IMG/VR virus record: IMGVR_UViG_3300024346_010589
Span: 1-64,000 of that record
Source of the DNA: a virus
Direction: 5' to 3' (one strand)
DNA: 64,000 nucleotides
Shown: positions 1,526-49,300 of the stretch, piece by piece
Position numbering within the stretch: the stretch's first letter is position 1
Layout: every line of letters begins with the position of its first letter
Translations under genes and position numbers: made by a program
The notes under the pieces: model-generated
Databases searched by the model: none
Told to the model about the DNA's origin: nothing
What the model saw: only the letters and a program-made list of their open reading frames with translations

Positions 1526-2362
1526 TTAAATGAAGTATCTTGGCTGGTATTTGTAGGGGTGTGACACTGGGAGATTATTTGAAGTACCCCACTTGTGAGC
1601 TAAATATCCTTCCATCTTTTCTTGGACTGAAGAGTCTTCAAAGAATACGAGCTCGGCAATGTATCCATTTATTGGGGCAAGCTCTGACTCATTAGCTCCA
1701 ACATTAAGTGATGAAAATGGATTGGTGCCAATGTTCCCTGAATTTTCAATTTCTCCATCAATCCTGATGGTAGAATTACTTCCGTTAAATTTGACAACAA
1801 GTAAAAGATCCTCTCCCTCATTGGCGGTGTTTTGGGGTGTGGTGAGGCTGTTATTTGAACCTGCTCCACTGCCCCCTAATATTTGAATTGAACTCAAGTT
1901 ACCATTCCTCCTTACCGACATTCTATTACCAGGCCCACTATTTTCAGTGCCAGCAATAATGAAATCCTGCTGGTTATTTATATTGCATTTGAAAATTACG
2001 GCAAGGTATAACCCATTGGAGTTTTGATCGTATGCAAAAGAATTATTCTCAAGCACCTGAGCAGGTAAGTCCCAGGTTAGTACGTTTAAATTATTAAGTG
2101 TCTCTACGCCCGTCTTGGGTGCAACTTTATTGGCGGTTAATACATTTAAGTGGAATCCATTGTCTGACTTATCGTCAACTTGAGACACGATTCCAGCAGA
2201 TTCCGTTATAGTGGATATGTCGCTTGCGTCGTACCACGCAAATATTGAAGCTTCTTCTGGGGTCCAGCGATTTTGAAAATTTTTAAGCTCAGTGTTGGGG
2301 TAAAATTTAGTCTGGTATGCGGAAGTTTTACCGATGAGCCTGAAGCTTGATATTTCTCCCAT
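1526..2362 (-). CDS. LamG/concanavalin A-like domain protein (virion decoration/adhesin), paralog of the C-terminus of 46393-49704
   Basis: W..AWYDASD start and GYIAELVFF...EGYLAHKWG...LP..HPYK end, typical of phage LamG-like jelly-roll modules. Confidence 0.7.
   Translation of the reverse strand: MGEISSFRLIGKTSAYQTKFYPNTELKNFQNRWTPEEASIFAWYDASDISTITESAGIVSQVDDKSDNGFHLNVLTANKVAPKTGVETLNNLNVLTWDLPAQVLENNSFAYDQNSNGLYLAVIFKCNINNQQDFIIAGTENSGPGNRMSVRRNGNLSSIQILGGSGAGSNNSLTTPQNTANEGEDLLLVVKFNGSNSTIRIDGEIENSGNIGTNPFSSLNVGANESELAPINGYIAELVFFEDSSVQEKMEGYLAHKWGTSNNLPVSHPYKYQPRYFI
1587..2251. repeat. direct repeat copy 1 (665 bp, colinear with 46451-47115)
   Basis: Manual alignment: constant offset 44864, no indels, long identical stretches. 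Confidence 0.95.
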
Positions 2363-3078
2363 TACAAATCATGCTTTTCCTGCAACAAGCAAGTTCCTGT
2401 AAAATTAGAATCACCTGTGAAGGTAACCCTGCTGTACCTGAAATTGAATTCATCGTAATAGCTAAAAGTTGTATCGGCGGAGGACTCGATTGTTCTTGTT
2501 TCTATTGGCGTCCAGTTGATTTCATCCATACTAGCTTCAAATATAAAATTACCGGTAAAGGTATTATTGGCACCAGTATAGCAATGAGCTATATAACCGT
2601 GCTTAATGTAAGAGGGCGATTCGGCTGGGTGGAGGTCGATAGAATCGCTAGACTCGCCAAGACTGGAGCTGCTTAAGTTTTTATTAGCTTCAATACTGAC
2701 GTAGGTCTTTGGGTTGACGGTTGGAACTGGATTAGTGTCAGATACATCTACGTCGCCCACCTGTAGATTGGCGCTAACAAAATCTGTGTCGCTGGTCAAA
2801 TTTCTAATATCTAGATCGGTAGATTCAATATTAATAGATTGATTTTCACTGGTATAAATGTTTACGGAGTCTTCGTCTTTGTCTAAATTTACGTTGATCT
2901 GCGCATCTTCTATGTTTACAGTCAGTAAGTCTCCAGTATTTAAAGGTCTCCAGCCGCCAACCTCAGAATTAATTCCTTGGTCCCATATGTATTGTAAATT
3001 TACATCTGGAGAATGTGATGCTTGACTGCTTCCACTAAAAAGAGGATTATCGTATGTGCGTGTAGGTATTGTGCTCAT
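2362..3078 (-). CDS. putative virion structural protein
   Basis: Acidic, Ser/Thr/Asn-rich; DLDIRNLT..TD.V motif seen in phage structural proteins; upstream GTGTA motif. Confidence 0.5.
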   Translation of the reverse strand: MSTIPTRTYDNPLFSGSSQASHSPDVNLQYIWDQGINSEVGGWRPLNTGDLLTVNIEDAQINVNLDKDEDSVNIYTSENQSINIESTDLDIRNLTSDTDFVSANLQVGDVDVSDTNPVPTVNPKTYVSIEANKNLSSSSLGESSDSIDLHPAESPSYIKHGYIAHCYTGANNTFTGNFIFEASMDEINWTPIETRTIESSADTTFSYYDEFNFRYSRVTFTGDSNFTGTCLLQEKHDL

Positions 3079-3101
3079 AATTTTTTTATCTCATAAAGGT
3101 A

Positions 3102-3106
3102 TACAC
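3102..3106 (-). promoter_or_regulatory. GTGTA[A/T] phage promoter-like motif
   Basis: One of 9 copies, all just upstream of - strand starts. Confidence 0.5.
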
Positions 3107-3111
3107 TTTTT

Positions 3112-3546
3112 TTAGCGCCTTTTACTAGGAATTGCATAAAATCCAACAACCATAAAGCACAAATCCATGAAAGACGAGAGCATCAGGCCTCCGGTCATTT
3201 GAACTAGCTCCCAATCTTTAGCCCCAAATACCCAACTAAAGAAGCCCCATCTAGTTCCTTCTCCTTTTGGTATTATTAAGTCATAAGTTATGTCTGGATT
3301 GTGGGCGTAATAGATCATCAAATAACACATCGTAAAGGTTATCGACATAAAAAGTATACGTCTTGAGACTTTCACAAAAGGATCGCTTGCTTGAGCAGAT
3401 TGGTTTTTGCAAATAGCATCAAACATAGCTGCATCTTTGGCGGCTATAAAAAGTTGGTCTTGGCGTTTTTGTTCAAGCCAAGAATTAATTAAATTACAAA
3501 GCAGTTTGATTCCTGCCCCAAGAATTGTATTTAATATGGGCCCCAT
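3112..3546 (-). CDS. membrane protein, possible holin
   Basis: N-terminal amphipathic helix, two hydrophobic helices (ILFMSITFTMCYLMIYY; LMLSSFMDLCFMVVGFYAI), basic C-terminus SKRR. Confidence 0.45.
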   Translation of the reverse strand: MGPILNTILGAGIKLLCNLINSWLEQKRQDQLFIAAKDAAMFDAICKNQSAQASDPFVKVSRRILFMSITFTMCYLMIYYAHNPDITYDLIIPKGEGTRWGFFSWVFGAKDWELVQMTGGLMLSSFMDLCFMVVGFYAIPSKRR

Positions 3547-3740
3547 CAGTCCGGAAGCTTATCGTAGTCGGCCTTACTGCAGAATTTAGTCAGCTTGGTG
3601 CCGTCTTCATCTACCGCTTTTAAGGCATATCTTATCGATTGCTTTCCGGTCTTGGTTGTTTTCTCGTAAGCTTGTTTTGTTACGCTTGACTCATCAACTG
3701 AGACTTTTTTTTTCTTTTTTACGTTATAAAATTCGATCAT
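3546..3740 (-). CDS. small basic protein, CC1/Cren7-like putative nucleoid protein (64 aa)
   Basis: Start re-assigned to ATG 3740 (MIEFYNVKKKKK...), 12 nt after a GTGTA motif; Lys-rich; FYxVK...T..G...YAxxA...GxKxxKF pattern. Confidence 0.55.
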   Translation of the reverse strand: MIEFYNVKKKKKVSVDESSVTKQAYEKTTKTGKQSIRYALKAVDEDGTKLTKFCSKADYDKLPD

Positions 3741-3752
3741 AGTAAAAGTATT

Positions 3753-3757
3753 TACAC
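3753..3757 (-). promoter_or_regulatory. GTGTA motif, 12 nt before ATG 3740
   Basis: GTGTAAATACTTTTACTATG. Confidence 0.6.
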
Positions 3758-4750
3758 TTAATACCCTGATGAATCGCTGCAATTTTGCATCTGATCGTAA
3801 ATCCAAGCATAAGTTTTCTCGAGTCCATCTTGTAGGCTGATTGATGGAGCCCATCCAAGAACCTCTTTGATCATTTCATTGTCGCTATTTCGACCACGAA
3901 CTCCTTGTGGCGCATCAAGATTGTAGTTTCTTTTTAATTTAATGCCTCCAATGCCTTCGGCTATATCAACCAGCTGATTGATTGAAACCATTTCGTCGCT
4001 GCCTAAATTCAATGGACGAGTGTCGCCTTTTTTCCACATCAAGTCCATTCCGGTTATGCAATCGTCGATATACATAAAAGAACGAGTTTGTTCGCCATCG
4101 CCCCAGATTTCAATTTCATGATTGCCGCTCATCTTAGCGTCAATAACTTTGCGGCAAATAGCTGCTGGAGCTTTTTCGCGGCCTCCGCGCCATGTGCCAT
4201 AAGGGCCATAAACATTGTGGTATCGACAGACCCTAGAGTCAATATTAAAGTCTTTGCCGTAGTAAGAAGTTAAGATCTCGCTAAAGAGTTTCTCCCAGCC
4301 ATATCCATCTTCCGGATTTGCCGGGTATGCAGTGTGCTCTTTTAAGCCCTGGGAGGCCGCATCTCTAATGTCGGACTGAATCTCTTGAGGGTAAATGCAG
4401 GCAGAGGAGCTATAGAGTATTTCTTTTACTCCATTGTCTCTAGCCGCCATAAGCATATGCGCCTGAATTAAAACTGATTCCATACAAAGAGCATGATTAT
4501 TTTGAATGAAACCCATGCCACCCATGTTGCAGGCAAGATTGTAGATTCGCTCAACACCTTTTGATAGATTATAGCAATGGTGCTTTTCCCCAAGATCACA
4601 GTCAAAATGATTTTCAGCAGCATCAAAAGTTTGATACCACTCTTCTGATGGTTTAATATCGGCAGCAATAACTTCGTGCCCTTGAGCTAGCAAATCTTTA
4701 ACTAAATAACCGGCAATAAAGCCGCCTGCTCCTCCTACTAATATTTTCAT
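3758..4750 (-). CDS. GDP-mannose 3,5-epimerase-like NAD-dependent epimerase
   Basis: GAGGFIAG Rossmann motif, NLACNMGGMGFI, YGWEKLFSE, GGREKAPAAICRKV, GVRGRNSDN are characteristic of GME. Confidence 0.85.
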   Translation of the reverse strand: MKILVGGAGGFIAGYLVKDLLAQGHEVIAADIKPSEEWYQTFDAAENHFDCDLGEKHHCYNLSKGVERIYNLACNMGGMGFIQNNHALCMESVLIQAHMLMAARDNGVKEILYSSSACIYPQEIQSDIRDAASQGLKEHTAYPANPEDGYGWEKLFSEILTSYYGKDFNIDSRVCRYHNVYGPYGTWRGGREKAPAAICRKVIDAKMSGNHEIEIWGDGEQTRSFMYIDDCITGMDLMWKKGDTRPLNLGSDEMVSINQLVDIAEGIGGIKLKRNYNLDAPQGVRGRNSDNEMIKEVLGWAPSISLQDGLEKTYAWIYDQMQNCSDSSGY

Positions 4751-5313
4751 TTTTTTGTTAATGAATATTGAAATTTAAAGATTTCAAAATTTTCTATTTC
4801 ATCAAAATAACATTCCAAAAATGTATCTACCGCTGGTATGATCCCGAAATCAAGCAGTTTAATTTGAGCGTCATCGTCTTGGTAGGCATTTCCGCATAGA
4901 AATCCGCCGGGTTTTAATTTGCGCCACCAGTTCTCTAAATCTTTTTGAGCAAAAGAATATGAATGGTTGGCATCTAGGTAGATCCAGTCAAGCGATTCGT
5001 CTGCGAAATCATAAAGAGCATCAATCGAATATTTTTCTATGACATTAACTCTTGAATCAGTGTAAAATTTATCCTTCACTTCTTGCTTGATGACGTCTAT
5101 TTCTTCTTGAGGAATAGCATGCCATCTAGCTGGAATATCCATTATGCTAACCCATGGGTCAACCAAATAAAGCGCTGATGGTTCCATTTTTATAATAAAC
5201 TCAGAAAAATCTCCCCTAAAAACACCTATTTCTGCGCATTTATCGCCGGGCTTTATTTTTTCCAATAGAGAGAGTCTTGAGTCGTCTAGTTCAAATTTGT
5301 ATGGTAATGGCAT
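4747..5313 (-). CDS. class I SAM methyltransferase (Methyltransf_24-like)
   Basis: EIGVFRGDFS, LVDPW, DWIYLDANHSY, KLKPGG. Confidence 0.85.
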   Translation of the reverse strand: MPLPYKFELDDSRLSLLEKIKPGDKCAEIGVFRGDFSEFIIKMEPSALYLVDPWVSIMDIPARWHAIPQEEIDVIKQEVKDKFYTDSRVNVIEKYSIDALYDFADESLDWIYLDANHSYSFAQKDLENWWRKLKPGGFLCGNAYQDDDAQIKLLDFGIIPAVDTFLECYFDEIENFEIFKFQYSLTKK

Positions 5314-21192: not shown

Positions 21193-22118
21193 ATCATGGT
21201 TATTTCTAAATCTTCGTCAATCAAGCCCCAGTTGTCTGGGTTCGGGTTGTCTATCATTTTGTTTCTGATGTCCAGGTCGTTAGTCTTGCGCTCCCCTTCT
21301 TGTTGCGCGTGAGGCTGCGTGGTATCGTTAGATGCTCCTTCAGATCTGTCATGATTTTGATGGTAAAAATCAGCGTCAATTGATAAACATAAATTATATA
21401 TATCTTCTTTTGCGGCAATACGATTAAGGAACTCTGTATCCATGCTATTCATGTAAACCAGCTTTTCATTAAACCCTTTGTTCTCAAGGTAGCATTCTCT
21501 GTCAACCATCATAACACCAACTGCACCGCCATAAAAAGGAAAAACTTCGCCGTTTGGCATCAATCGGCTATAGTGATTATGCTCGTGACAAATATCAACC
21601 TTCCTGGATAATTGTTGATCATATATATAATCCCTAAAAACAGAGTGATGAGATTGATCTTCACTTAAATTTCTACGACTACAAAACGCCGCCCTTGGCC
21701 AGCTCCAACCATAATCTTTAACTTCATACTCATGGTAGAACCAGTCCATAAACCTTTGACCTATCAAGGTGTCTTGATCGATTCTCGCAAAATGTTTGCC
21801 CTCCATGTTTCTGAATCCAACATTCATTGCGTGAACCTCTGAGAATGGAGAGTCTCCCTGGTGCCTGTCAGCTATCTCAGGTGACACGGTAACTATTTTA
21901 AGTAGACCTTTAGCTTCTGGGACTAATCTAGAGGATATGGACTCCCTTAAAGAGCCGCTACGAGAGCACCAATCAACCAGTAGGACTTCGGATTGATCAA
22001 CAACATTATTCTTTGCAATGATTTCACAGGCATGATTAACTGTGTTGACACAACGGCCAACCGAATCACCATTATAATTATCATTTCTAGAAACTAATAC
22101 GTAAGATATTCTTTTCAT
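21189..22118 (-). CDS. GT2/GT7-like glycosyltransferase
   Basis: VSRNDNYNG, LVDW, NVGFR, RIDQD, GFNE...D.E, YHQNH. Confidence 0.65.
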   Translation of the reverse strand: MKRISYVLVSRNDNYNGDSVGRCVNTVNHACEIIAKNNVVDQSEVLLVDWCSRSGSLRESISSRLVPEAKGLLKIVTVSPEIADRHQGDSPFSEVHAMNVGFRNMEGKHFARIDQDTLIGQRFMDWFYHEYEVKDYGWSWPRAAFCSRRNLSEDQSHHSVFRDYIYDQQLSRKVDICHEHNHYSRLMPNGEVFPFYGGAVGVMMVDRECYLENKGFNEKLVYMNSMDTEFLNRIAAKEDIYNLCLSIDADFYHQNHDRSEGASNDTTQPHAQQEGERKTNDLDIRNKMIDNPNPDNWGLIDEDLEITMI

Positions 22119-22756
22119 GATCCTGGGACTAATCTTTTAGAGTTAAAACAGAAAACGCGATTTTGATTAGGCACTGTAACTTGTATACCTCCAATTTCTT
22201 TTAACATGTTCATGTGCATAGATCCTGGAGTGGATACGTGCTTTTCAAGATGCTTTAAGCAGTGAAAATTTATACTATTTCTGTATTGTTTATCTATGTT
22301 GTGATTGTATGTATTTGGAACTATGTAAAAAATCTTATTCATCCAGTTAAACGCATCATTTAATTTTAAAAGAATATCTTCCGAGTCGGTGACCACAAAG
22401 AAATTAGCCTTTCTCGCATTGATTTGAACTTTATTCATTTGCGCGATATAAACATTAATGTCACTAACTTTGTCGGCCTCGAGAATAACTCCCCAAGTAT
22501 GCTCAGTAATCCTTTTATTGATTCTTATTATTTCTTCGATAGCTGTTTCTGGCATAGAGCTAAGGCTATGAATTTCGTTTTCAAATTTGTAAGATTTGTA
22601 TTCCATTGTTAGTTCTTTTATTTTGTGTTGTTCAGTGTAGTATTTAAGTGATTGTTCGTAGTTTAATTCTCTATCTAGGTATTTTAATATTTGAAGGCTT
22701 TTATTTTCGTATGCTGTTTTAGCTTTATTTAGTTTTTTTTTAAAATAAGATATCAT
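22115..22756 (-). CDS. hypothetical, possibly degenerate fucosyltransferase-clan protein
   Basis: FFVVTDSE motif II-like; first gene of the glycan operon. Confidence 0.4.
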   Translation of the reverse strand: MISYFKKKLNKAKTAYENKSLQILKYLDRELNYEQSLKYYTEQHKIKELTMEYKSYKFENEIHSLSSMPETAIEEIIRINKRITEHTWGVILEADKVSDINVYIAQMNKVQINARKANFFVVTDSEDILLKLNDAFNWMNKIFYIVPNTYNHNIDKQYRNSINFHCLKHLEKHVSTPGSMHMNMLKEIGGIQVTVPNQNRVFCFNSKRLVPGS

Positions 22757-22761
22757 TAAGT

Positions 22762-22963
22762 TGGTGGAGCTGGAGGGAGGTCAACCTTATTGACTACCAG
22801 TTTTGATAGTTTTTTGACTATTAATTTAGCGGTTTTTTTTATAATTAAAAATGCCATTGTAATCCATAAAGTAAATTAAGCACAGTCAATTATGAATTAT
22901 TAATTAATTTAAAATCCCAAAGAAATAGAGAAAAATAAAAAATAGTTGAAATCGTACAGAGCA
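22762..22963 (-). pseudogene. probable decayed tmRNA (ssrA) or tmRNA 3' fragment
   Basis: 3' end CTCCCTCCAGCTCCACCA matches the tmRNA T-arm/acceptor/CCA; 5' CTGTACGATTTCAAC resembles (GGGG)CTGTACGGTTTCGAC; acceptor and T stems broken; only ~200 nt. Confidence 0.45.
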
Positions 22964-22975
22964 TCGTTAGTTAGA

Positions 22976-23512
22976 TTACACATTATTGAGTATAAATTTT
23001 ACTATAATATCTCCCCTTTCTTTTTTGGAGGAGAAGGCCCATAGCCATACATAGCTGTTTCTAATGTCAGATATGGTCTTTTCGGTTTTAATTATGCTTG
23101 CTTCTATGAATTTAATGTCTGAGAACTTCATTTTATTCAAGTCTATTTTTAAATCTTTAGCTATTGAGACTAGTTTATCAATCTTATTTTCTTTTTTTGC
23201 CTCTGTTGCTTCTTGGTATGCGTCTAGTTTTTTATCATTATTGGCGACTTTATCTGGGTGAGTTTCGATTGCTATCTTTCTGTATAAGGATTTAAATTCA
23301 GGCGCAACTTCAGGCTCACCCTTCTTTTCTTTATCTTCTTTGAGTTTTTCTAGTGGGTTTTGTAGGTCGTTTCTACTGCAATAATCACAAACCTCAGAAC
23401 AAAATATAGGCACTGACTCTTCGTATATAGAGTTAACTTCCGATAACTCGTTATTGAGTTCAGAACATTTAGCCTTTAGCTTTCTTAGTAGTTTTGATTT
23501 ATAATCGTCCAA
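22976..23512 (-). CDS. DnaJ (J-domain) protein
   Basis: LYRKIAIETHPDKV with HPD motif, flanked by coiled coils. Confidence 0.75.
   Translation of the reverse strand: MDDYKSKLLRKLKAKCSELNNELSEVNSIYEESVPIFCSEVCDYCSRNDLQNPLEKLKEDKEKKGEPEVAPEFKSLYRKIAIETHPDKVANNDKKLDAYQEATEAKKENKIDKLVSIAKDLKIDLNKMKFSDIKFIEASIIKTEKTISDIRNSYVWLWAFSSKKERGDIIVKFILNNV
22977..22981 (-). promoter_or_regulatory. GTGTA motif upstream of the tmRNA-like element and glycan operon
   Basis: GTGTAATCTAACTAACG. Confidence 0.55.
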
Positions 23513-23541
23513 TATACAATATTATAAAATAATATTGATAT

Positions 23542-23793
23542 TTACCCACTACTAATTTTCAAGAAATCAGAGCCATCTCTCCATACAGCCCCCCTTACCA
23601 AGGGGTCAACAGTAGGAATATTATCATAGTCAAGAATCAAATACCCCAAGCTGGCAGAAATCGAAGAAATACTTGAGCTAGAAATAGATGATGCGGAAAC
23701 CTGACCTAGGTCAGACACATCACTGTCTAGGTTCTGGAAGATTCCGCTTTCGCCGCTAGTATTGCTTAATGTGTATAATGGAACTTTTGCCAT
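23542..23793 (-). CDS. small virion fiber-type protein
   Basis: C-terminal NIPTVDP.VRGAVWRDG..LKISSG resembles the LPTSDP..AG.LW..G.LKIS motif of phage fibers; upstream GTGTA motif. Confidence 0.5.
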   Translation of the reverse strand: MAKVPLYTLSNTSGESGIFQNLDSDVSDLGQVSASSISSSSISSISASLGYLILDYDNIPTVDPLVRGAVWRDGSDFLKISSG

Positions 23794-23802
23794 AATATAT
23801 AT

Positions 23803-23807
23803 TACAC
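23803..23807 (-). promoter_or_regulatory. GTGTA motif, 9 nt before ATG 23793
   Basis: GTGTAATATATATTATG. Confidence 0.6.
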
Positions 23808-23816
23808 GTAAGAATT

Positions 23817-23884
23817 AAGCGCCTTGAAGATGAATATCAGAATCTTGATCAAACAAGATGATAGGGTGAATCTCCAGGGCGCTT
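23817..23884. terminator. long imperfect hairpin after nrdB, likely (bidirectional) terminator
   Basis: AAGCGCCTTGAAGAT...ATCTCCAGGGCGCTT outer stem, ATCTTG/CAAGAT inner stem, T-run on + side. Confidence 0.6.
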
Positions 23885-23892
23885 TTTAGAAT

Positions 23893-24906
23893 TTAAAAGT
23901 CGTCTTCTAGTGAGCCGCTTTGTTGATACTCGCGGACTCTTCTTTCGAAGAAATTACCCATCGCCTGCACATCAACAACCTCTCCTAGCCAAGGGAATGG
24001 GTTTTTATCGCTAGGGAACCTGTAGTCTAATCCTATAGCTTCTAAGCGTCTATTACCAATGTAATGCATATAGTCCACGAACATGTCTGCATTCAACCCA
24101 AGTATTCCGGTGGGAAGAACATCTTTTGCATAAGCAATTTCAAGGTCAACTGCTTTTTTAATGTGTTCAATGAATTCCTCTTGAATTTCTTTAGTCCAAA
24201 TAGAGGGGTTTTGATCAATTAAAGTATTGATGAGATAAGTTCCAAATGCAATGTGAGAGCTTTCGTCCCTCAATGTATATTTAATCTGATCAGAAACACC
24301 CTGTAATTTATTTTGACGACCAAGCGCAAGAAGCATAGCAAATCCACTAAAGAAAAAAGTACCTTCGCATATAATCCAGTAGGTCAAGAAGTTTCTTAAT
24401 ATAGCCTGCTTGCCCTCAATGCTAGTTGAGTTGAAGTCATTAGAACTAATATCGTCAGTAATCTGCATCAAGAAGTCATCCTTAGCTTTAATGCTTGGAA
24501 CATTTTGATAGGCCGCATAGACCTCGTCAATTTCTAAATCAAGACTATCGCATATGTATACAACAGTTAGGTTGTGAAGACTTTCTTCAAAAGCTTGACG
24601 CAATATATACTGGCGACACTCAGCGTCTGTAATATAACGAAAAGCGGACAAAAGCAAATTATTGCCAACCAAAGACTCACTTCCTGCAAAAAATCCAAGA
24701 CATCGTTTGACAAGTAATTTTTCATCTTCTGTAATTTCATTGTTTTTCCATTGAGCTATATCGTTTTGCATAGATATTTCAGTGGGCATCCAGTTATTTG
24801 CACAGCTTTTAAGGAATAAGTCCCATGCATATTTATGTTTATGGGGCAATATTCTGTTTACCCCGGCGATATTGTCTGTTAAAAGTTCTCCTGTTTTATC
24901 TTTCAT
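23893..24906 (-). CDS. nrdB: ribonucleotide reductase beta subunit, class Ic-type (Val at radical Tyr site)
   Basis: Ligands E77, E108/H111, EGTFF, DESSH; V115 at the H+4 Tyr position; C-terminal NFFERRVREYQ. Confidence 0.9.
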   Translation of the reverse strand: MKDKTGELLTDNIAGVNRILPHKHKYAWDLFLKSCANNWMPTEISMQNDIAQWKNNEITEDEKLLVKRCLGFFAGSESLVGNNLLLSAFRYITDAECRQYILRQAFEESLHNLTVVYICDSLDLEIDEVYAAYQNVPSIKAKDDFLMQITDDISSNDFNSTSIEGKQAILRNFLTYWIICEGTFFFSGFAMLLALGRQNKLQGVSDQIKYTLRDESSHIAFGTYLINTLIDQNPSIWTKEIQEEFIEHIKKAVDLEIAYAKDVLPTGILGLNADMFVDYMHYIGNRRLEAIGLDYRFPSDKNPFPWLGEVVDVQAMGNFFERRVREYQQSGSLEDDF

Positions 24907-25309: not shown

Positions 25310-25627
25310 TTATAAATTGTCTGATATTTTTTTGAGTCTAGTTATTATGTAGTTTAGGTTTAGTGCATTTATTCTATCTACAACTATATCTCCTTTTTTG
25401 GGATGGATTAATGCGCCAGACTCCAGCTCCCCCTCGTGGAGAACATAGGAGATGAAATCATGAGCGCCGTTATTCTTCAACCAATTCCAGTACATAGATC
25501 TTGTACCCATCTTGCAGGAAAGCAGTACGTTTTCAAAATGAAACACTTTACTATACATAGTCACGTCCCTGAAACAGGATATCTCGCTGGGTGGTTCGGA
25601 TAGAGTTGAATCTATGATTAAATTCAT
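25310..25627 (-). CDS. hypothetical protein
   Basis: 105 aa ORF abutting both neighbours. Confidence 0.6.
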   Translation of the reverse strand: MNLIIDSTLSEPPSEISCFRDVTMYSKVFHFENVLLSCKMGTRSMYWNWLKNNGAHDFISYVLHEGELESGALIHPKKGDIVVDRINALNLNYIITRLKKISDNL

Positions 25628-26733
25628 TAACTAGAGGATATGATCAATGCCAGAATCACAACTATTGCGCAAATTATCAATGGTATGTTTTTGCTTTTCT
25701 TGGGTTCTGGTTCTACAGGCTCTGGTTCTGGTTCGACAGGCTCTGGTTCTGGTTCTATGGGCTCTGGTTCAACAGGCTCTGGTTCAACAGGCTCTGGTTC
25801 AACAGGCTCTGGCTCTGGTTCTATGGGCTCTGGTTCAACAGGCTCTGGTTCAACAGGCTCTGGTTCTGGTTCGGGGTCAATTGGTTTTGGGTTAACAAAC
25901 CCATCCGAAAACTCTACATAGTAAGGGCCAATAGAGTTCATGATAGAGGACTTAAATAAGGAATCCTCCATAAAAAAGTAGCCAGAGTTTCCAAAAAATA
26001 AACCCCAACTGTTTTGAAATTCCCAGTAAAGCTTGTCGTTTATATACTTCCAACCAATGAGGCATACCGCATGGCCACCTGCAACCTCTGATGCTAGGTA
26101 TTTTTCTGTATCAACAATGCCGTCATAGCCAATGGAAAAAAAGTAATCCCTGACTTTGAATGCATACCAAAGTGGCCGGTCAATCACCATCCTTTTAATC
26201 TCTTCTGTTTCAGAGCAGGGTATAACGTGGTAGGAGCTAATCTTTTTGAGTCCAGCGTCTTCTTTTGCTCCTTCTTTGGGGTTACTGGATTCGCTATCTA
26301 TATATGGCCAAAAGCTTTCAAAGCAGCAACCTTCGTTTATTAATGCGTTAGCAGCACCCCTGATTGATGTTCCTGAGTAATCTTCACCGGCCCATGGGTC
26401 GTATTTTTTAGCGGTCTTGTATATCCACATAGGGCTTGGCTCTTCGTTCTTGAACGCACTAGCCGAACCAAGAACAACCCTTCCGCTGTGGCCCACGCAT
26501 GAACCTATTGACCCTTGGTTAGCGACGCTTACGCATAGTGATCTTCTGGAGAATTCCTTACTGTTGACACTTTCGGATTTTAAATACTCAGAGACGTGAA
26601 CCCAATCTCTTTTATCTGCAGGATGTTCAGAAACATTTAATTTTTTTTCTGAAAATTTATTCTTTTTAACGTATTTAGATACTGGATTGTCTAGTAATAA
26701 GGACGCTATCGATTGTATTAGTTTTTTTCTCAT
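25627..26733 (-). CDS. papain-like (C1) cysteine peptidase with Pro-Glu stalk and C-terminal membrane anchor
   Basis: NQGSIGSCVG (Q,C), GGHAVCLIGW (H), FQNSWG (N); (EPEPV/I)n; terminal hydrophobic helix. Confidence 0.85.
   Translation of the reverse strand: MRKKLIQSIASLLLDNPVSKYVKKNKFSEKKLNVSEHPADKRDWVHVSEYLKSESVNSKEFSRRSLCVSVANQGSIGSCVGHSGRVVLGSASAFKNEEPSPMWIYKTAKKYDPWAGEDYSGTSIRGAANALINEGCCFESFWPYIDSESSNPKEGAKEDAGLKKISSYHVIPCSETEEIKRMVIDRPLWYAFKVRDYFFSIGYDGIVDTEKYLASEVAGGHAVCLIGWKYINDKLYWEFQNSWGLFFGNSGYFFMEDSLFKSSIMNSIGPYYVEFSDGFVNPKPIDPEPEPEPVEPEPVEPEPIEPEPEPVEPEPVEPEPVEPEPIEPEPEPVEPEPEPVEPEPKKSKNIPLIICAIVVILALIISSS
25702..25878. repeat. tandem 15/21-nt repeats encoding PEPVE/PEPEPIE
   Basis: ggctctggttcaaca units repeated about 10 times. 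Confidence 0.95.
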
Positions 26734-41571: not shown

Positions 41572-42141
41572 ATGAGCTTACAATTATACAAACCAAATAA
41601 ATACAACTCTGGATTCGGTTTCAGTTTCTCAATGGGTCACGACAAGAATAGCGGCGAGCCTATCTTATTTGTGTCAGCTATTATGCAGTACAGCTGGGAT
41701 GAGAAAGCTAGACGAGGAACCTTCATCAAAAACAAAGAAGACCCAGAGAAAAACATTACCTTGAAATTTAATGAGTTTGAGTGTGGCTCAATAATCAACG
41801 CAGTAAAGAATAGATTTGCATACGACACCTTCCATCAATTCGAAGGTAAAAAAACTACTATAAAATTTACTCCATGGGATAAGGAATCTAAAGTTTCTAA
41901 GTTTGACCCAAAAACAAAAAGCTACAAAGAAGAAATTCAAATACTACCAAACTTCGGATTAACAATTATCAAAAACGGAAGCAGTACATTCAAATGCTCC
42001 TTAGAAGCTGGAGAGGCAGAATGCTTATCTAGATTTCTTGAAACTATTTTAACCAGAATATACAACTTTCGCATAGAGAAAAATATTGAGTCATTTTCTA
42101 AATCCAAATACTCTAACCCTGAAGAAGACTGCCCGATTTAA
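41572..42141 (+). CDS. hypothetical protein
   Basis: 189 aa ORF in the early block. Confidence 0.65.
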   Translation: MSLQLYKPNKYNSGFGFSFSMGHDKNSGEPILFVSAIMQYSWDEKARRGTFIKNKEDPEKNITLKFNEFECGSIINAVKNRFAYDTFHQFEGKKTTIKFTPWDKESKVSKFDPKTKSYKEEIQILPNFGLTIIKNGSSTFKCSLEAGEAECLSRFLETILTRIYNFRIEKNIESFSKSKYSNPEEDCPI

Positions 42142-44048
42142 TGAAGAAGATATTATTTCATAGCAATCACAGTAAAGCATTTACTGGCTTCGGAAAGAAT
42201 TGCAAGAACGTATTATCCTACCTGTATTCTACCGGAAAATATGAAATTATAGAAGCCTGCAATGGGATGCCAAAGTCTCATCCAGCTTTATCCAAGATGC
42301 CCTGGAAGTGCGTTGGCACATTGCCGGACGACCAAAGAAAACTGCAACAATTACAGAAAGATCCAAATACCGCAAGGATCGCCAGCTATGGTGGAGAAAC
42401 AATAGACGACTTAATAAAAGAATTCAAGCCTGATATATATATTGGCGCCGAAGACATTTGGGGCTTTAATGGATACTGGAAAAGGAAATGGTGGGACAAG
42501 ATAAACTCCATCATATGGACGACATTAGACTCTGAACCTATATTGCCACTAGCGCTTGAAGCTGCTCCATTTGTTAAAAACTTTTATGTTTGGGCTAGTT
42601 TTGCTGAAAGAGAATTAAATAAACTAGGACACGAACACGTTAAAACCCTAAGAGGCGTAGTCAAGACAGAGAGCTTCTTTAAAATTCCAACCAAACACAA
42701 AGAACATTTAAGAAAAAAATTCCTAATAGACTCAAATTCTTTTGTAATTGGCTTTGTTTTCAGAAACCAACTAAGAAAGAGTGTGCCTAATTTAATGGAT
42801 GGGTTCTCGTCATTCCTTAGGGATAATCCTGACTCAAACGCCAAACTATTACTCCACACGCACTGGGGCGAAGGCTGGGATATAGTCAGGTTGATAAAGG
42901 AAAAGGGTATAGAGAACTCAAGAATACTCACAACGTATTATTGCAAGAAATGCAAGCAGTACGAAATTAAACCATTCTCAGGCCAAGAACTTGATTGCAA
43001 ATACTGCAGATCCAAAAAAAGCCAAAACACCACAAACGTACAGGCTGGGGTTTCTGAAAATCAACTGAATGAAATATACAACCTAATGGATGTATACTGT
43101 CATCCGTTCACTTCCGGCGGTCAAGAAATACCAATTCAAGAAGCTAAGCTTACCGAGCTTGTAACCCTTGTCACAAACTATAGCTGCGGCGAGGACACCT
43201 CAACTACAGAGAGCGGATCCTTCCCGCTTGAGTGGGCTGAATACAGGGAGCCTGGAACTCAATTTATAAAAGCTAGCACCTATCCATCCAGCATCGCCAA
43301 GCAGTTGACAAAAGTTTTCAAAATGAAAGCCAACAAGAAGGCTAAGATGGGCAAAACTGGAAGAAAGTTCGTTATAGATAATTTCTCCCCAGAAGTAATA
43401 GGCGCCCAACTAGAAGATATATTTGATTCAATGCCTGACCATAATTTTGATTTCGACTTCAAGGATAAGCCAAGAAATCCTAATTACATCCCACGAAATA
43501 TAACTTGCGACTCAGAATGGTTGGTTGACATTTATAAAAATATCCTAATCATGGACGTGGATGCAAAGACTGACGAAGGCCACAAGTACTGGATGGGTGA
43601 AATCTCAAAAGGGAAAACAAGAGACGAAGTTCTTCAATTCTTTAAAGATGTTGCCAATAAAGAAAATTCTTCAATTCCATCTTCTTTTGATTTTGAGAAA
43701 TTTCTTGACGACGAAGGCGCAGAGAACAGGATTGCTGTAGTTATGCCTGGAAGCGGCGGCGATGTATTGTGGGTTAATTCACTGATATCTAATCTAAAGT
43801 CTCTCTATCCATCCCATAATATATATTTTATAACAGACCCAAAGTTTTATCCCTTTATTGAAGACAATCCTTGCGTGCATAAATTAATACCATATAGTGA
43901 TCGGATCGATTCCTTGACCTTCCTGGAGGGTGTGGGCGAACACAAAGGATACTTTGACGTAGCCTACCTTCCCCATATCGGAACTCAAAAAATATATAAC
44001 TATATACACAACGGCAGAGACAAAAGTCAACTAGATTTATTGCCATGA
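42141..44048 (+). CDS. multidomain glycosyltransferase: GT4 with Zn ribbon, DUF4214-like segment and GT9 N-terminal half
   Basis: TGFG, FRNQLRK, CKKC...CKYC, SGGQEIPIQEA; then IAVVMPGSGGDVL...FIEDNPCVHKLI. Confidence 0.75.
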   Translation: MKKILFHSNHSKAFTGFGKNCKNVLSYLYSTGKYEIIEACNGMPKSHPALSKMPWKCVGTLPDDQRKLQQLQKDPNTARIASYGGETIDDLIKEFKPDIYIGAEDIWGFNGYWKRKWWDKINSIIWTTLDSEPILPLALEAAPFVKNFYVWASFAERELNKLGHEHVKTLRGVVKTESFFKIPTKHKEHLRKKFLIDSNSFVIGFVFRNQLRKSVPNLMDGFSSFLRDNPDSNAKLLLHTHWGEGWDIVRLIKEKGIENSRILTTYYCKKCKQYEIKPFSGQELDCKYCRSKKSQNTTNVQAGVSENQLNEIYNLMDVYCHPFTSGGQEIPIQEAKLTELVTLVTNYSCGEDTSTTESGSFPLEWAEYREPGTQFIKASTYPSSIAKQLTKVFKMKANKKAKMGKTGRKFVIDNFSPEVIGAQLEDIFDSMPDHNFDFDFKDKPRNPNYIPRNITCDSEWLVDIYKNILIMDVDAKTDEGHKYWMGEISKGKTRDEVLQFFKDVANKENSSIPSSFDFEKFLDDEGAENRIAVVMPGSGGDVLWVNSLISNLKSLYPSHNIYFITDPKFYPFIEDNPCVHKLIPYSDRIDSLTFLEGVGEHKGYFDVAYLPHIGTQKIYNYIHNGRDKSQLDLLP

Positions 44049-44452
44049 ACCCAAAGGATGAAAGCATCTTATCAGTGCCTATATCAGTAGGTGAATTGTT
44101 TGATAGAATTTCTGTATTAGAAGTTAAAAGAATAAAGATTAACGATCCAGAAAAGCTTTCTCACGTGAATAATGAATACGAATTACTACTCCCCCTATGC
44201 GAGGAACGTATTTCAATAAAACCAGAACTAAAGTCATTACTCTCAGATATAACAGACGTCAACGAAAACCTATGGGACATACTAGAGCACCAAAGAAATA
44301 AAGAAAAGAATAAAGAATTAGATCAAGAGTTTATAAACATATCTATATCAGTATACAGAGAGAATGATAAAAGATTTAATATTAAAAATGAAATTAATAA
44401 TTTAACTAATTCAAAAATTAAAGAACAAAAATATTATACCGCAGAAAAATGA
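44045..44452 (+). CDS. DUF6165-like protein
   Basis: VPISVGELFDRISVLEVK...VN..LWD.....R......F......VY..ND.RF.IK.EIN....S.IKEQK.Y. Confidence 0.65.
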   Translation: MNPKDESILSVPISVGELFDRISVLEVKRIKINDPEKLSHVNNEYELLLPLCEERISIKPELKSLLSDITDVNENLWDILEHQRNKEKNKELDQEFINISISVYRENDKRFNIKNEINNLTNSKIKEQKYYTAEK

Positions 44453-45639
44453 GTCATATCGCTGAAGAATACGCAAAATCACTTGGTGTTAAAATAGGTC
44501 AACCTGAAATCATTGGTCACTTCTACCCAATACCTTCTGAGAAATTTATAACGTTCCACACTAACAACACTAAATCTCCAGCAAGACATTATGATTATTG
44601 GGCCGTAACTATACAAATGATTAAACCCTTCTTAAAAAAAGAAGGAATAGATATAATACAAATAGGCGGAAAAGATGATGTCGTACTAAATGATTGCGAT
44701 TTTAATTTACTAAATTGTTCATTCAAACAAATGACCTACGTATCCAGTAAGTCGTTACTGCATTTTGGTATAGATAGTCTTCCCGTCCATATAGCGAGCT
44801 GCTTTGATAAAAAAATAGTATGCCTCTACTCGAACCTTTTCCCAGAATGCTCTGGTCCAATATGGAATAAGAAATCACAAGTAAAATTAATTTCTCCTGA
44901 TTTTTCCGAGATAAAACCATCTCTCTCAAACCATGAATCTGTAAAAAGAGTAAACGAAGTTAAGCCTGAAGAAATAGGTTGCGCAGTTTTAGATTTATTA
45001 AATATCAAGCATGATTTAAATAACCTATATACATTAAATATAGGCAGGCATTTCCATAGTCGTGTAGTTGAGGCCGTGCCAAACACTATTGCGCCAGAAG
45101 GATTCAAACAGTCGTCCTTGATTAATTTAAGGTGTGACTATGGGGCGAATAACGAAGGACTTTCTTCTTGGCTAAACTACAGGTCTAATTTAATGACTTC
45201 AACAAAGATTACATTGGATCACATCAACAAATCCAATATCGTTGCGATGACTTTATTCCTGGAGGATGGAAACTTCGACAAAGAGTATCTAAATTATTTA
45301 AACTCTCTGGGTGTTAAATACTCCTTAATATGCAGGGACTCATCCAAACTATCAGAACTTAGATTCAAGTTCTTTGATTGGACTGTTGAGGAATACAAAC
45401 TGACCCTAAAAAAAGATCTTGACTTCTGTGAAGAAATATGTGATAATACGTTCTATGAAAGCAATAAAGTACTTATATGCGATAGTAAAGAATACGCAAG
45501 CAAAGCGCACTGGAAAGCTGGAATTACAAACAATAAAGAAAAATCAAAAATCATCGACACTGATGACTTTTGGGAAGAAGTAGAACATTTCAACATATAT
45601 AATCATGGTAAAAGCAAAAAAAATCGAAACAGAGTCTGA
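44449..45639 (+). CDS. GT9 C-terminal-half glycosyltransferase with extra domain
   Basis: Starts at SHIAEEYA..LG, then FITFH, IIQIGG, HFGIDSLPVHIAS..DKKIVCLY. Confidence 0.65.
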   Translation: MSHIAEEYAKSLGVKIGQPEIIGHFYPIPSEKFITFHTNNTKSPARHYDYWAVTIQMIKPFLKKEGIDIIQIGGKDDVVLNDCDFNLLNCSFKQMTYVSSKSLLHFGIDSLPVHIASCFDKKIVCLYSNLFPECSGPIWNKKSQVKLISPDFSEIKPSLSNHESVKRVNEVKPEEIGCAVLDLLNIKHDLNNLYTLNIGRHFHSRVVEAVPNTIAPEGFKQSSLINLRCDYGANNEGLSSWLNYRSNLMTSTKITLDHINKSNIVAMTLFLEDGNFDKEYLNYLNSLGVKYSLICRDSSKLSELRFKFFDWTVEEYKLTLKKDLDFCEEICDNTFYESNKVLICDSKEYASKAHWKAGITNNKEKSKIIDTDDFWEEVEHFNIYNHGKSKKNRNRV

Positions 45640-46396
45640 GATAGACAACTCCATAGGGCCTTCGTTATTCAACAGGGACGAAAACGGTTTACTAAAAAAC
45701 ATACAATACGTCTTTAACGAAGATGGCTCCGTTAACTGGAGAGCGATGATAAAAGAAGAACATTTATTCCCAAACAAACTTTGGTTTCAGGCTAGAAATA
45801 AAGACATGCCAAGATCAATAGAAGGTTTAAAAGATAACCAACTTTTAATAAAACTTAGCGGAATCAAAGAGCTTGCCAGGCTAAGGGGGTTCTCAAGCAT
45901 ATCCTACTCTATGGATAAGTGTGAAGATGATCATGTTGCAGTTACTTGTAGTACTGTTTTTATACCCAATTACGAAACAGGAAACGATCCAGTTTCATTT
46001 CAAGACATGGCAAATGCAAGTACAAAAAACACAAGTAGTTTTGCTACCAAATTTCTAGAGACTATAGCGTGCAACAGGTCTTTTGTCAGATGCGTTAGAA
46101 ACTTCCTAAATGTACATATTGTTGGAGACGACGAGATTGACAAATCAAACCCAAATGGACCTTCCCATCAAGATTCTTCTAAAAAAAGTGACCCATTTAG
46201 TCCTGTAACCACATTGAAGAATAGGGTGAAAAGCATTCTTTCCGTTGAATCGTTTGAAGAGTTTAAGCCTTTTATCAAAAAATGCTGGCAAGAAAAAAAA
46301 GAAGGAATCTACCAAAATAAAAATATAGAATCCTGGAAAGACTGGGACGACATCTCAGTCAAAGACGCCAAGATACTTATAAGCTTAATATCTTAA
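45605..46396 (+). CDS. Rad52/Sak-like ssDNA-annealing protein (putative)
   Basis: IKLSGIKELA...ANAS..NT......ETIACNRSFVRCVR pattern of the Rad52 superfamily; near ssb. Confidence 0.5.
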   Translation: MVKAKKIETESEIDNSIGPSLFNRDENGLLKNIQYVFNEDGSVNWRAMIKEEHLFPNKLWFQARNKDMPRSIEGLKDNQLLIKLSGIKELARLRGFSSISYSMDKCEDDHVAVTCSTVFIPNYETGNDPVSFQDMANASTKNTSSFATKFLETIACNRSFVRCVRNFLNVHIVGDDEIDKSNPNGPSHQDSSKKSDPFSPVTTLKNRVKSILSVESFEEFKPFIKKCWQEKKEGIYQNKNIESWKDWDDISVKDAKILISLIS

Positions 46397-49300
46397 GCTT
46401 GTGGTGTCACAAACTTGTATGGATGCCCTTGTGGCAGTTTACTAGACGTGCCCCACTTGTGAGCTAAATATCCTTCCATCTTTTCTTGGACTGAAGAGTC
46501 TTCAAAGAATACGAGCTCGGCAATGTATCCATTGATTGATTGATCCTCTCCCTCATTGGCTCCAACATTAAGTGATGAAAATGGATTGGTGCCAATGTTC
46601 CCTGAACTTTCAACTTCCCCGTCAATCCTGATACTAGAATTACTTCCGTTAAATTTCACAACAATTAAAAGATCCTCTCCCTCATTGGCAGTGTTTGGGC
46701 CTGAGCCAAGGGCGATATTTGAACCTGTTCCACTGCCCCCTAATACTTGAATTGAATTGAAGCCAACTGTCCTCCTTGCAGACATTCTATTACCAGGCAC
46801 AGTACTTTCAGTGCCAGCAATAATGAAATCCTGCTGGTTATTTATATTGCATTTGAAAATTACGGCAAAGTATAATGCCTTGGAGTTTTGATCGTATGCA
46901 AAAGAATTATTCTCAAGCACCTGGGCAGGTAAGTCCCAAGTTAGTACATTTAAATTATTAAGTGTCTCTACGCCCGTCTTGGGTCCAACTTTATTGGCGG
47001 TTAATACATTTAAGTGGAATCCATTGTCTGACTTATCGTCAACTTGAGACACGACTCCAGCAGATTCCGTTATGGTGGATATGTCGCTTGCGTCGTACCA
47101 CGCAAATAAAGAAGCCACAGTGGGACTCCATGGTTTAAATATAAACTCTCTAGTCTTAGTATTTCCGCTAGCAGATCTAACATAAAGAGAGTATCCATCG
47201 CTTGGAGGTATTTCTGTAAATAAAAACGACACATCCTTGGTGCTGGCTTTTCCAACTACCATTGCCCCTAAATAAGACATCGTTTCGTCTCCACCATCAT
47301 ACTCAATACCAAATGTAACTATCGGCGCATATTCATGTTCGAATGGAAATTTAACTTTTATGTAATTCTGATTGGCGGCTCTCATTCCATCAAGATTCAC
47401 AATGGTAATTTGATCATTCTGTATTAACTTTATTGGGTCTTCAGGGTTTCCGCCTTCAGCTTCAGCTATGATTTTATTAGCGTCCGCTAAAACTCCAGTT
47501 CCAATTGTATCAAATGGCAATATCTGAAAAAATCCAGGAGGATTATCTCCGTCTTCATTGTATGAGAAATTCACTCCAGATTGTAATACCTCTATAGTTC
47601 CATCTCCTGGTTGATCTTCTTTAAAGGATTTGTATAAATTGTCGTCAGAAATAGAAAATCCATAAGAGTCTCCTGTATAGAGGTTTGCCTGGATTAAATT
47701 GTAATTTGTTTGGTCTCCCTGCTGCAACCCAGACTCATAATAATGATCTTCAAAGTTGTATTGAAAATTTATATCTAAACTCCCTGATAATCCAGTTAAT
47801 TCATTTATTTCTACTGGTCTAGATTCAGCTTTAAATCCTGTGGTATATATTAAATAATCATCACTATCTCTCTTTATGTCTAATTTTAAATGAGCCTCTC
47901 TTGTTTTTTCGTATCCACTTCCTGCATATTTATATATATGAGTTCCGCTTGAGTTTGTCCAACACCAATACTCCCCTACATCATTTATTTCCAGCCTTGA
48001 GCTTTCCGTTCCTCCAGTTATGTTTGTTATCTGTATGTCTCTACTTTGCTCCTGATCTATGTTTATACTTTCAAGGAATGATTGATTGCTAAAATCCTCA
48101 GAGAACAAACTAGTCATAACCCCAACCTTGTTCCGCCTTAACCCTAGCCATCCAATCCCTCCGCTAATTTCAGAAATCTTAGTCAATTGGGATTTATTCA
48201 TTATCACCGCAGGCATGCGCCCTATCGAATTAAGATAAGAGGCTCCCTGCTCGTAACTCTTTTGAAAATTAACTCCATCATGATACTGTATATCATAACT
48301 ATTCGGGTTGTTTACAGGGATAGAATATATTCCCCTAGTCTCCAGTATTCCAGATTTTATTTCTTCGTTACTAGCGCATTTAAATTTATTTTCATAAGGG
48401 TCGTAATATCCATAGTTGTAAATTCCTCCTGATATTACGCCACCTCCATTATCCTTTGAAACGTATCCAGTATACTTAGGAAAAGATTCAGCCCAATATT
48501 CTCCCGCTCCACTTCCATATGTTCCAGATCCAGTAAATCCTACTCCAGTTATAGTTGCTACATCTTTTAATTCTCCAGTATTAAAACCCTCCTGAATTGG
48601 CAGTGAATTATCGTATGTATATTCAATCCCAGTATTATTATAATTGTAAGTCGCATCAAAGGCAACCCCGCTATCATAAAATATTTCACCATCATAACCA
48701 AGTACTGAACCTGTTGTCTGACCTGTTCCTGTCACACCGTAGCAAGTTGTCATTAAATCACTGCCAGTGTTGTAATTCAAATCAAATGTATAGCGATATG
48801 CATCGCCACCAGATATTCTGTAGCCATTAATGTTTCTTATTGCTGGGTTGTAATCTATCAGTAATGGTTGCTCAGGGTTCCCCACAAGCCCGCTAAACCC
48901 AACTCCTGTAATGTATTCTTGAGGCTTAAAAAATCCAGATACATCCCCATAATAATATAAATCCCTAGGAACTGACATTACGTAATTGTTAGCGCCTGGC
49001 GTTAGCTCTATTGATGCAAAACCATTATTACCTGTCTCTGATCTTATAGCTTTACTTTTATCCGGAAAAGTACCATTTTCGAATCCAGTAAAATTATAAA
49101 GCTCTAAATACCTAAGGCCGTTTGCTATGCTTGATCCATTTTCTCCAGTTAATCCACTATAACTGCAATCAAAAACTCCCATATCAACTCCGGTTGATAA
49201 AATAGAATAATTAGGCATCGGGTTCTGCGTGGTTAATATTGCCCTATTCTTGTTGCCTGTAAAATCTGTTAATATTATCTCTACAGAATAATTTCTACTA

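Follow-up and report, generated by a model that had tools for sequence, protein, structure and literature searches.

The host range of a phage is set by its receptor-binding domains. For the T-even phages, adhesin mosaics at conserved motifs were reportedly described by Tetart in 1998. Represented by gp37 and gp38, the mosaic adhesins of tail fibres, with recombination at conserved motifs, have become the classic case (Trojet et al. 2011, PMC3157838). Here, a comparable arrangement was analyzed in the first 64 kb (64,000 nucleotides, hereafter the window) of the 82 kb viral contig IMGVR_UViG_3300024346_010589 from IMG/VR, for which CheckV estimates a completeness of 61%. A TARA contig and 20 public runs, mostly labelled marine metagenome, hold this sequence or close relatives of it, indicating a marine origin. 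The same ConA/LamG-like module stands at two loci of this phage, in a free-standing small gene and at the tip of a putative tail fibre 45 kb away, and we put at about 75% the probability that its core is exchanged between the loci by recombination and kept matched in type.

The gp37/gp38 adhesins and the module of the window are alike in that hypervariable segments lie between conserved motifs, in mosaics that are ascribed to homologous recombination within the conserved stretches and in the presence of a UvsX-type recombinase. The module is, however, a ConA/LamG beta-sandwich without sequence or fold relation to the glycine-rich fold of gp38, and Pfam and PHROG scans of both window proteins returned no gp37 or gp38 family. 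Moreover, exchange in the T-even phages takes place between phages at one locus, whereas here a free-standing paralogue in the same genome appears to exchange and match the cassette. Diversity-generating retroelements (DGRs), such as that acting on Mtd of phage BPP-1, resemble the system in the clustered variation of a C-terminal ligand-binding domain of the fibre and in the second genomic copy. The system differs from a DGR in that no reverse transcriptase (RT) was found in the contig, the differences are not specific to adenine and a non-coding template is missing; moreover, each copy looks like an expressed gene, and the fold belongs to another class. Alternative C-terminal host-range modules within one genome, swapped by recombination, are likewise found in phages Mu (Gin/G) and P1 (Cin/C) and in the R64 shufflon, but these use inverted repeats and an adjacent serine or tyrosine recombinase, while the copies studied here are direct repeats 45 kb apart.

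Paralogous cassettes also feed the gene conversion behind antigenic variation in pilE/pilS of Neisseria and vlsE of Borrelia. There too, the variable centre of a surface binding protein is replaced from a paralogue via conserved flanks, giving mosaics; these systems, however, draw on many silent donors in a frequent, programmed process, whereas the window phage has one partner copy, apparently a functional gene. Free-standing LamG/ConA-like homologues of 253-282 amino acids (aa) with 27-32% identity, annotated as virion structural, occur in the cyanosiphoviruses S-CBS4 (gp058) and KBS-S-2A (CPKG_00053), and a tailspike chain of the cyanopodophage Pan3 (PDB 9vyh_p) is structurally similar to the module. 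In these records no fused fibre copy is annotated and no exchange between copies is reported, in contrast to the window phage, which appears to have both. No publication in which a fibre tip and a paralogue evolve in concert came up in a limited literature search, which is weak evidence of novelty; as far as that search reached, a free-standing paralogue 45 kb away that shares the fibre-tip cassette, exchanges its centre and stays matched over at least four types is apparently undescribed. Diversification of receptor domains in uncultured marine phages has mostly been inferred from under-recruiting “metaviromic islands”, for which the window provides a concrete anatomy.

Comparison of the two loci among related phages

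The window phage (W) was compared with a related phage, R (IMGVR_UViG_3300025621_001306), which is 91-93% identical to it genome-wide. Only in W, R and a further phage, T (IMGVR_UViG_3300047368_000327), do both loci lie on a single contig. The copies in the small gene and in the fibre are denoted Ws and Wf in the window phage and Rs and Rf in R, respectively. When these four sequences are aligned, the copies group by locus at 34 informative sites, which lie towards the two ends of the module (codons 1-26 and 226-245). Across codons 61-199 the partners are swapped, 23 informative sites joining Ws to Rf and Wf to Rs and none grouping the copies by genome. The 57 informative sites are ordered in five runs along the module (permutation p <= 5e-6), and a stretch of 216 nucleotides (nt) is identical between Ws and Rf. 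Synonymous divergence (dS) in the centre was 0.019 for Ws-Rf and 0.083 for Wf-Rs, whereas the orthologous pairs gave 0.12-0.13 and the bodies of the fibres 0.218. The two central haplotypes are termed alpha and beta (Table 1). At the protein level each of them is present at both loci, accompanied by mosaics at the level of single patches; Rs, for example, holds a short alpha-like tract (TPQ, codons 143-147, in variable patch 3) within an otherwise beta centre, which represents a finer mosaic.

It can further be observed that flanks and haplotypes are linked. Small proteins with a W-type N-terminus carry alpha (the window, P0001, P0002 and P0003) and those with an R-type N-terminus carry beta' (L003, L004, L005, L090, L092 and P0004), consistently over 4-6 independent assemblies each from different pipelines, and linkage of the fibre to alpha is found in Rf, P0098 and P0006. 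In a maximum-likelihood core tree, five modules with small-gene tails and five with fibre tails share the lineage-1 clade (support 99/97), and three of each share the alpha clade (98/99). Approximately unbiased (AU) tests reject clades of the core by locus (p = 6.6e-70, 1.5e-11 and 1.1e-5). Phylogenies are thus incongruent from segment to segment and hypervariable segments lie between conserved motifs, as in mosaic adhesins. Gene conversion between the copies had been one of three origins offered in the initial annotation of the window, and it is supported more strongly than was proposed there, through the 23 swapped sites, the dS of 0.019 and the AU tests. The comparison of the sequences indicates that material has moved between the loci repeatedly, in tracts of varied length, and apparently without machinery of the RT or site-specific kind.

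Beyond alpha and beta, the core as a whole was found to be replaced. The motifs WYDASD and EGYLAHKW are invariant in the family alignment, and the replaced segment, a cassette of 216-219 residues, runs approximately from one to the other. At least four cassette types were distinguished, with 30-45% identity between types and 86-98% identity between loci within a type; they occur among relatives that are syntenic and have 68-99% identity in the flanking genes. At the small locus other types (zeta, 38% identity; delta, 33%) take the place of the window core, with N-terminus and tail retained. The 32 N-terminal residues of the small protein are 91-100% identical among close relatives (P0001, P0002 and P0004) and, by eye, near-identical in the zeta small protein. 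The tails are specific to the locus, the small gene ending in ...YKYQPRYFI and the fibre in ...YKFVTPQA. Across types, the small-gene form of 278-281 aa retains the N-terminal peptide and the …QPRYFI tail, and the fibre retains a linker (…SASGNTKTREF.FKPW) and a tail (…FVTPQA or …IPQA); a form of 330 aa in T has an N-terminal extension of its own and ends in …ISFPLSGD.

At the fibre locus, bodies are 92-97% identical in related phages while identity in the core drops to 71-88%, and gamma or zeta cores with 30-71% identity to that of the window are joined to fibre bodies that are 92-95% identical. The profile of fibre P0099 is uneven: its body is 91.6% identical to that of the window (100% over residues 751-850), its core 70.7% and its tail 85%, and this core is 83-89% identical to the small-gene proteins P0007-11, the tails of which are of small-gene type. 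Genome T is syntenic with the window, with flanking genes 68-94% identical. Its fibre and its free-standing protein of 330 aa, 47 kb apart, share cores with 95% protein and 97% DNA identity and sharp edges (upstream identity 29%), whereas the T core is 33-36% identical to the window core. For zeta, the neighbours of the small gene in L013 are 86-99% identical to those in the window, and the fibres L106, from the same metagenome as L013, and L107 have bodies approximately 95% identical to that of the window; the zeta core of the small gene has 98% identity to that of the fibres, and both have 30-38% identity to the window core. Within types, dS between the loci amounts to 0.05-0.11 with unrelated flanks. 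The ratio of non-synonymous to synonymous divergence (dN/dS) of the cross-locus pairs is 0.69 for window alpha/beta, 0.43 for T and 0.14 for zeta, the window pair being the most diverged. As an observation on the fibre body of the window (gene 46393-49704), it is itself a W/R mosaic when set against L006, gene nt 901-1800 being 99-100% identical and nt 601-900 only 85%.

The duplication is old rather than recent, since in all relatives each locus is marked by a conserved N-terminal context and a C-terminal tail of its own. A plain recent duplication had been named as the alternative to a diversified cassette, to be recognized by the absence of template and RT, a dN/dS well below 1 and scattered changes. 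The absence of template and RT is the only part of this that agrees with our results; the duplication is old and the copies appear to exchange sequence. Furthermore, the module behaves as a detachable unit, apparently fused, free-standing or absent, because fibres without it and a module gene at a third site occur in two related genomes. The module-less fibres, of 846-853 aa (L098 in G002 and L097 in G005), end in ...GYALNVRSVS*, 13 residues before the module start. An extra protein of 853-925 aa ending in a LamG-like module, approximately 48-52% identical to that of the window, is present in relatives (L010 2079-5410 in G002, L011 in G005 and L008 in G004). Its gene is an insertion, flanked by genes with 96-100% identity to window 22115-22756 and 23893-24906, and the window is without this gene of ~2.6 kb (22756-23893).

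Homologues of the 278-aa protein were found at 97-25% identity. A nucleotide search of cultured phages gave no match, and a protein search of them gave only distant cyanophage homologues. Few further close relatives were gained by a metagenome scan, and the gamma cassette type was absent from the IMG/VR search.

Sequence, fold and selection of the module

Exactly two copies of the module were found in the 82 kb contig by repeat search and BLAST (1526-2362 and 46432-47115), with 91% nucleotide identity over 684 nt. In the protein alignment they are colinear and free of indels from residue 33 of the small protein and residue 859 of the fibre to the protein ends. The repeat search, BLAST and the protein alignment all bear out the duplicated, indel-free module, once stand-alone and once as fibre C-terminus, that had been described from the sequence alone. 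For the 665 bp delimited at that time (1587-2251 and 46451-47115), the hand count of approximately 31 amino-acid differences agrees with the 31 non-synonymous codons obtained here, while approximately 12 synonymous differences was an undercount, as 14 were found. The codon pairs quoted (AAC/ATC, AGC/GCC, ACC/GGC, CCC/GGC, AAC/GGC and CTT/GAT) and the four patches (ENSGP/ESTVP, NGNLS/TVGFN, NNSLTTPQ/NIALGSGP and SELAP/GEDQS) are all present in the list of codon differences. The clustering of the non-synonymous codons also proved genuine, with 18 gaps of at most two codons (permutation p = 1.5e-4); synonymous codon differences were unclustered (p = 0.17).

The dN/dS between Ws and Wf is approximately 0.5 overall, reaches approximately 1.0 in module codons 105-200 and is 0.14-0.3 in the flanks; that of the fibre body between two related phages is 0.09. 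The positions at which alpha and beta differ match columns that are hypervariable in the family at large (entropy 1.71 compared with 0.86 bits, p = 4e-8), an overlap that fits patches on the surface that would determine specificity. Diversifying selection, the third of the origins first suggested, is plausible rather than proven: dN/dS is near 1 in the centre only, and the hypervariable columns fit relaxed constraint equally well.

The AlphaFold2 model of the 278-aa protein (predicted local distance difference test score 81.5) is an all-beta sandwich with 30 disordered residues at the N-terminus. Foldseek retrieved lectin-type jelly rolls and the Pan3 tailspike chain with probability 1.0, and BFVD matches were named ConA-like or LamG-like phage proteins, with template modelling scores of up to 0.74. 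The Pfam family Laminin_G_3 (PF13385) scored 19.1 and 18.3 bits, below the curated cut-off of 27.6, and several homologues of the module carry precomputed PF13385 matches. The label LamG-like given to the module at first is therefore appropriate at the level of fold, with the Pfam score below the cut-off. The module is predicted to bind a host surface glycan, and the variable patches presumably set its specificity.

Alternative explanations and the proposed process

A number of observations weigh against exchange between the loci. Every sequence compared is a metagenome assembly, and the gamma and zeta pairs of small gene and fibre were deduced from separate contigs. The repeat of 735 nt contains identical runs of 68-83 nt, which makes mis-phasing or collapse possible; Logan contigs (k = 31) on the fibre copy break at the repeat, and one of them (run X1) switches path between the copies. 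The linkage of fibre and beta is unreplicated and occurs in the window only; exact beta-type pieces were recovered from run X2 at a depth of 12-24, compared with 13 for the fibre flanks. P0005 and P0009 join a small N-terminus to a fibre tail and are possible artefacts, and L105 (IMGVR_UViG_3300001352_002136, 1-2671) passes from a fibre body through a zeta module into the region downstream of the small locus, as would be expected of a collapsed repeat. A crossover between direct repeats, deleting ~45 kb, and a collapsed repeat account equally well for the joins in L105, P0005, P0009 and run X1. The broken and path-switching Logan contigs, L105, P0005 and P0009, and the single occurrence of fibre with beta speak for an assembly artefact, in which the W/R swap and the chimeras would stem from mis-phased or collapsed copies while the real cassettes were fixed by locus. 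We nevertheless regard this as decidedly unlikely. Random mis-phasing would mix N-terminal subtypes and haplotypes, each of which is tied to one partner throughout the 4-6 assemblies; identical runs between the window copies, at most 83 nt, lie below the typical read length; delta/delta and zeta/zeta pairs with the correct locus-specific flanks on long contigs cannot be made in this way; and the identity profile of P0099 over body, core and tail would be left unexplained. The consistent linkage, together with the W, R and T contigs with correct flanks, therefore disfavours an artefact as the general explanation. Other opposing points concern the process itself. Between divergent types the longest exact nucleotide run is 10-13 nt and no long nucleotide anchors were found, so that direct conversion across types would need very short homology, or else replacement would proceed allele by allele at each locus. 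Matching is not universal, as G002 combines a beta' small gene with a fibre without the module, and DSSP coil shows no significant excess of variable residues (p = 0.18). The allele-by-allele route forms the basis of an account that we consider unlikely, namely that matched pairs arise by allelic recombination with co-infecting relatives at each locus and selection for the same glycan, without frequent conversion between loci. The flanks, 86-99% identical among relatives, would support such allelic exchange, the short exact homology of divergent types and the W/R mosaic of the fibre body agree with it, and in marine phages the genes for host recognition are an established kind of metaviromic island (PMC3909814). 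The within-type dS of 0.05-0.11 between unrelated flanks, however, makes at least one copying event between loci unavoidable for each type, and the alpha/beta swap with the alpha tract in the beta centre of Rs points to continuing exchange between loci within a type.

The locus-specific N-terminus and tail, the dN/dS of approximately 1 confined to the centre and the coincidence of variable positions with family hypervariable columns would also be compatible with a plain, old duplication after which the copies diverged independently, the patches reflecting fast loops or diversifying selection and no exchange taking place. This is very improbable, because it explains neither the swapped sites with a cross-locus dS of 0.019 against 0.12-0.22, nor the AU rejection of clades by locus, nor four types of 30-45% identity each present at both loci at 86-98%. 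A remote DGR, the remaining suggestion of the initial annotation, would employ one copy or an unseen copy as template, from which a remote RT would write adenine-mutagenised cDNA into the variable repeat. In its favour, the patches of variation occupy the ligand-binding domain at the C-terminus of a tail fibre, a situation known from Bordetella phage BPP-1; in addition, a number of the variable codons read AAY in one of the copies, and the contig is only 61% complete. We nevertheless judge a DGR to be barely credible. Whichever copy is taken as template, and on both strands, the differences show no bias towards adenine. The core contains 70 differences, of which 21 are located at an A of copy 1 (A frequency 0.32, p = 0.71) and 12 at an A of copy 2 (p = 0.998); opposite-strand tests on thymine gave p = 0.81-0.97 and the centre alone gave the same result, p ranging from 0.6 to 0.998 overall. 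Many of the differences are C/G, C/T and synonymous changes, and the retained third-position C/T that had been read as a DGR sign is merely how changes at first and second positions look. Each copy is an intact coding gene whose ends are specific to its locus, and the recommended BLAST for further copies or a non-coding template found only these two copies in the 82 kb contig. The likewise recommended search for an RT gave no RVT_1 match at E (expect value) <= 1 in the 82 kb contig or in eight related viral records, one of them 100% complete at 150 kb, although controls detected RTs; with the genome of W 61% complete, a remote RT is conceivable. Moreover, the fold is ConA/LamG-like and not of the C-type-lectin or immunoglobulin kinds typical of DGR targets. 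A false lead is thus removed: clustered non-synonymous variation with AAY-like codons is no DGR signature unless adenine specificity has been tested. Switching by an invertase or shufflon was also considered and rejected, as the window holds no inverted repeats of at least 40 nt and the copies are direct repeats; searches for Resolvase and Phage_integrase gave no match in the 82 kb contig.

Returning to exchange by recombination between the two loci, the core between WYDASD and EGYLAHKW would be copied or exchanged by homologous recombination or gene conversion. For alpha and beta, the long conserved framework, with identical runs of up to 83 nt in the window, would give the necessary homology, and both cassette-sized and smaller mosaics would result. 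When a divergent cassette type enters a lineage, only the short bracket motifs would be common, with 10-13 nt of exact identity. As an outcome, the fibre tip and the free-standing protein would carry a matching type, within which the specificity patches may differ, as in alpha and beta, or be reshuffled. Catalysis by the phage's own UvsX-like recombinase is a conjecture. The free-standing protein is presumably made and functional; its gene is probably a working one, because the N-terminal peptide is kept while the core is swapped and because it is coupled to a conserved 238-aa gene through TAATG. It is possible, though doubtful, that the two loci form a dedicated system, in which the free-standing copy, coupled to a XepA-like gene and beside a holin-like protein, is kept matched by recurrent gene conversion. 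In such a system it could act as an in-genome donor and acceptor for switching fibre-tip specificity, as a phage counterpart of pilE/pilS. Alternatively it could supply a second protein for the same host glycan, for example an auxiliary virion adhesin or a lysis-targeting subunit, in which case both proteins would need to change jointly whenever the host surface changes. If the pairing is functional, engineering or prediction of host range for these phages must weigh both genes.

Genomic setting of the two loci

The coordinates of the features are listed in Table 1. The start of the fibre gene overlaps the stop of a J-like gene as TAATG, the fibre lying directly downstream of it. The J-like protein has a fused tail-assembly-I-like N-terminus, and its nearest cultured relatives are proteins of siphoviruses with approximately 30% identity. 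The adjacency of this gene places the 1103-aa gene in the tail module, which is of siphovirus type, and the position directly after the J gene is that of a siphovirus tail fibre. The fibre body gave no family match, and the assignment as fibre is putative.

Table 1. Coordinates of the two module copies, their parts and neighbouring genes in the window
Feature	Position	Strand	Description
Free-standing 278-aa gene (small copy, Ws)	1526..2362	-	Open reading frame (ORF); 32-residue conserved N-terminal peptide, module and tail
Putative tail fibre, 1103 aa (Wf)	46393..49704	-	ORF; body residues 1-858, module 859-1103
Module in fibre	46396-47130	-	Fibre residues 859-1103, 245 codons
Exchangeable core of small copy	1589..2236	-	Bracketed by WYDASD (residues 43-48) and EGYLAHKW (251-258)
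Exchangeable core of fibre copy	46453..47100	-	Fibre residues 869-1084, same WYDASD/EGYLAHKW bracket
Centre of small copy, alpha haplotype	1670..2086	-	Module codons 61-199; nearly identical to Rf centre
Centre of fibre copy, beta haplotype	46534..46950	-	Closest relative is the Rs centre, 95.1% nt identity across loci
Variable patch 1	1934..1942	-	Small-protein residues 141-143, NSG vs STV
Variable patch 2	1892..1915	-	Residues 150-157, V.RNGNLS vs A.RTVGFN
Variable patch 3	1832..1852	-	Residues 171-177, NSLTTPQ vs IALGSGP
Variable patch 5	1673..1687	-	Residues 226-230, SELAP vs GEDQS
UvsX/RecA-like recombinase	36..1157	-	PHROG 97, E 2.9e-32; Pfam RecA, E 8e-12; ~370 nt downstream of small copy
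Conserved 238-aa gene	2362..3078	-	Translationally coupled to small copy; homologues 84-100% identical on many contigs
144-aa protein gene	3112-3546	-	Three hydrophobic segments, basic C-terminus; holin-like appearance
Lambda J-like central tail fibre/tip protein	49704..55100	-	PHROG 31, E 5e-105; Pfam Phage-tail_3, E 2.7e-19

The 278-aa protein is matched by PHROG 10356, “virion structural protein”, with E 2.6e-15. The start of its gene overlaps the stop of the upstream 238-aa gene, again as TAATG. The 238-aa protein gave no Pfam match; it has a repeat-like N-terminal half and a predicted XepA/YomS-like beta-sandwich in its C-terminal half, the AlphaFold2 model being confident for residues 129-238 only. 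With this model VIA-align gave XepA (6i56, Z 12.7) and YomS (6i5o, Z 11.1), followed by generic beta-sandwiches at approximately 10.5, and the Atlas feature search gave XepA at 0.93. XepA and YomS are proteins of lytic cassettes in B. subtilis prophages (PMC6834076). As a lead, the small locus may belong to a late or lysis cluster and not to the tail module. The idea that the 238-aa gene duplicates the part of the fibre ahead of the module was rejected in the absence of significant similarity (best E 0.037).

Further observations were made in the window. A promoter-like site at 1493-1521 (minus strand; TTGACT, a spacer of 17 nt, TATTAT and an extended-10 TG, 10/12 matches) sits just past the stop of the small gene, ahead of a 110-aa gene; in a scan for promoters and terminators around the small locus, such sites were no commoner than in shuffled sequence. 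The 45 kb between the copies is bounded by sugar-modifying genes (window 3758-5313 and 42141-45639), which include an NAD-dependent epimerase/GDP-mannose dehydratase-like gene, a methyltransferase, a weak glycosyltransferase-1 match and DUF6165. Finally, a tandem array at 25703-25906, within an ORF at 25627-26733 (minus strand), is composed of 15/21-nt units encoding Gly-Ser-Thr-rich repeats, with eight copies of a 66-nt family.

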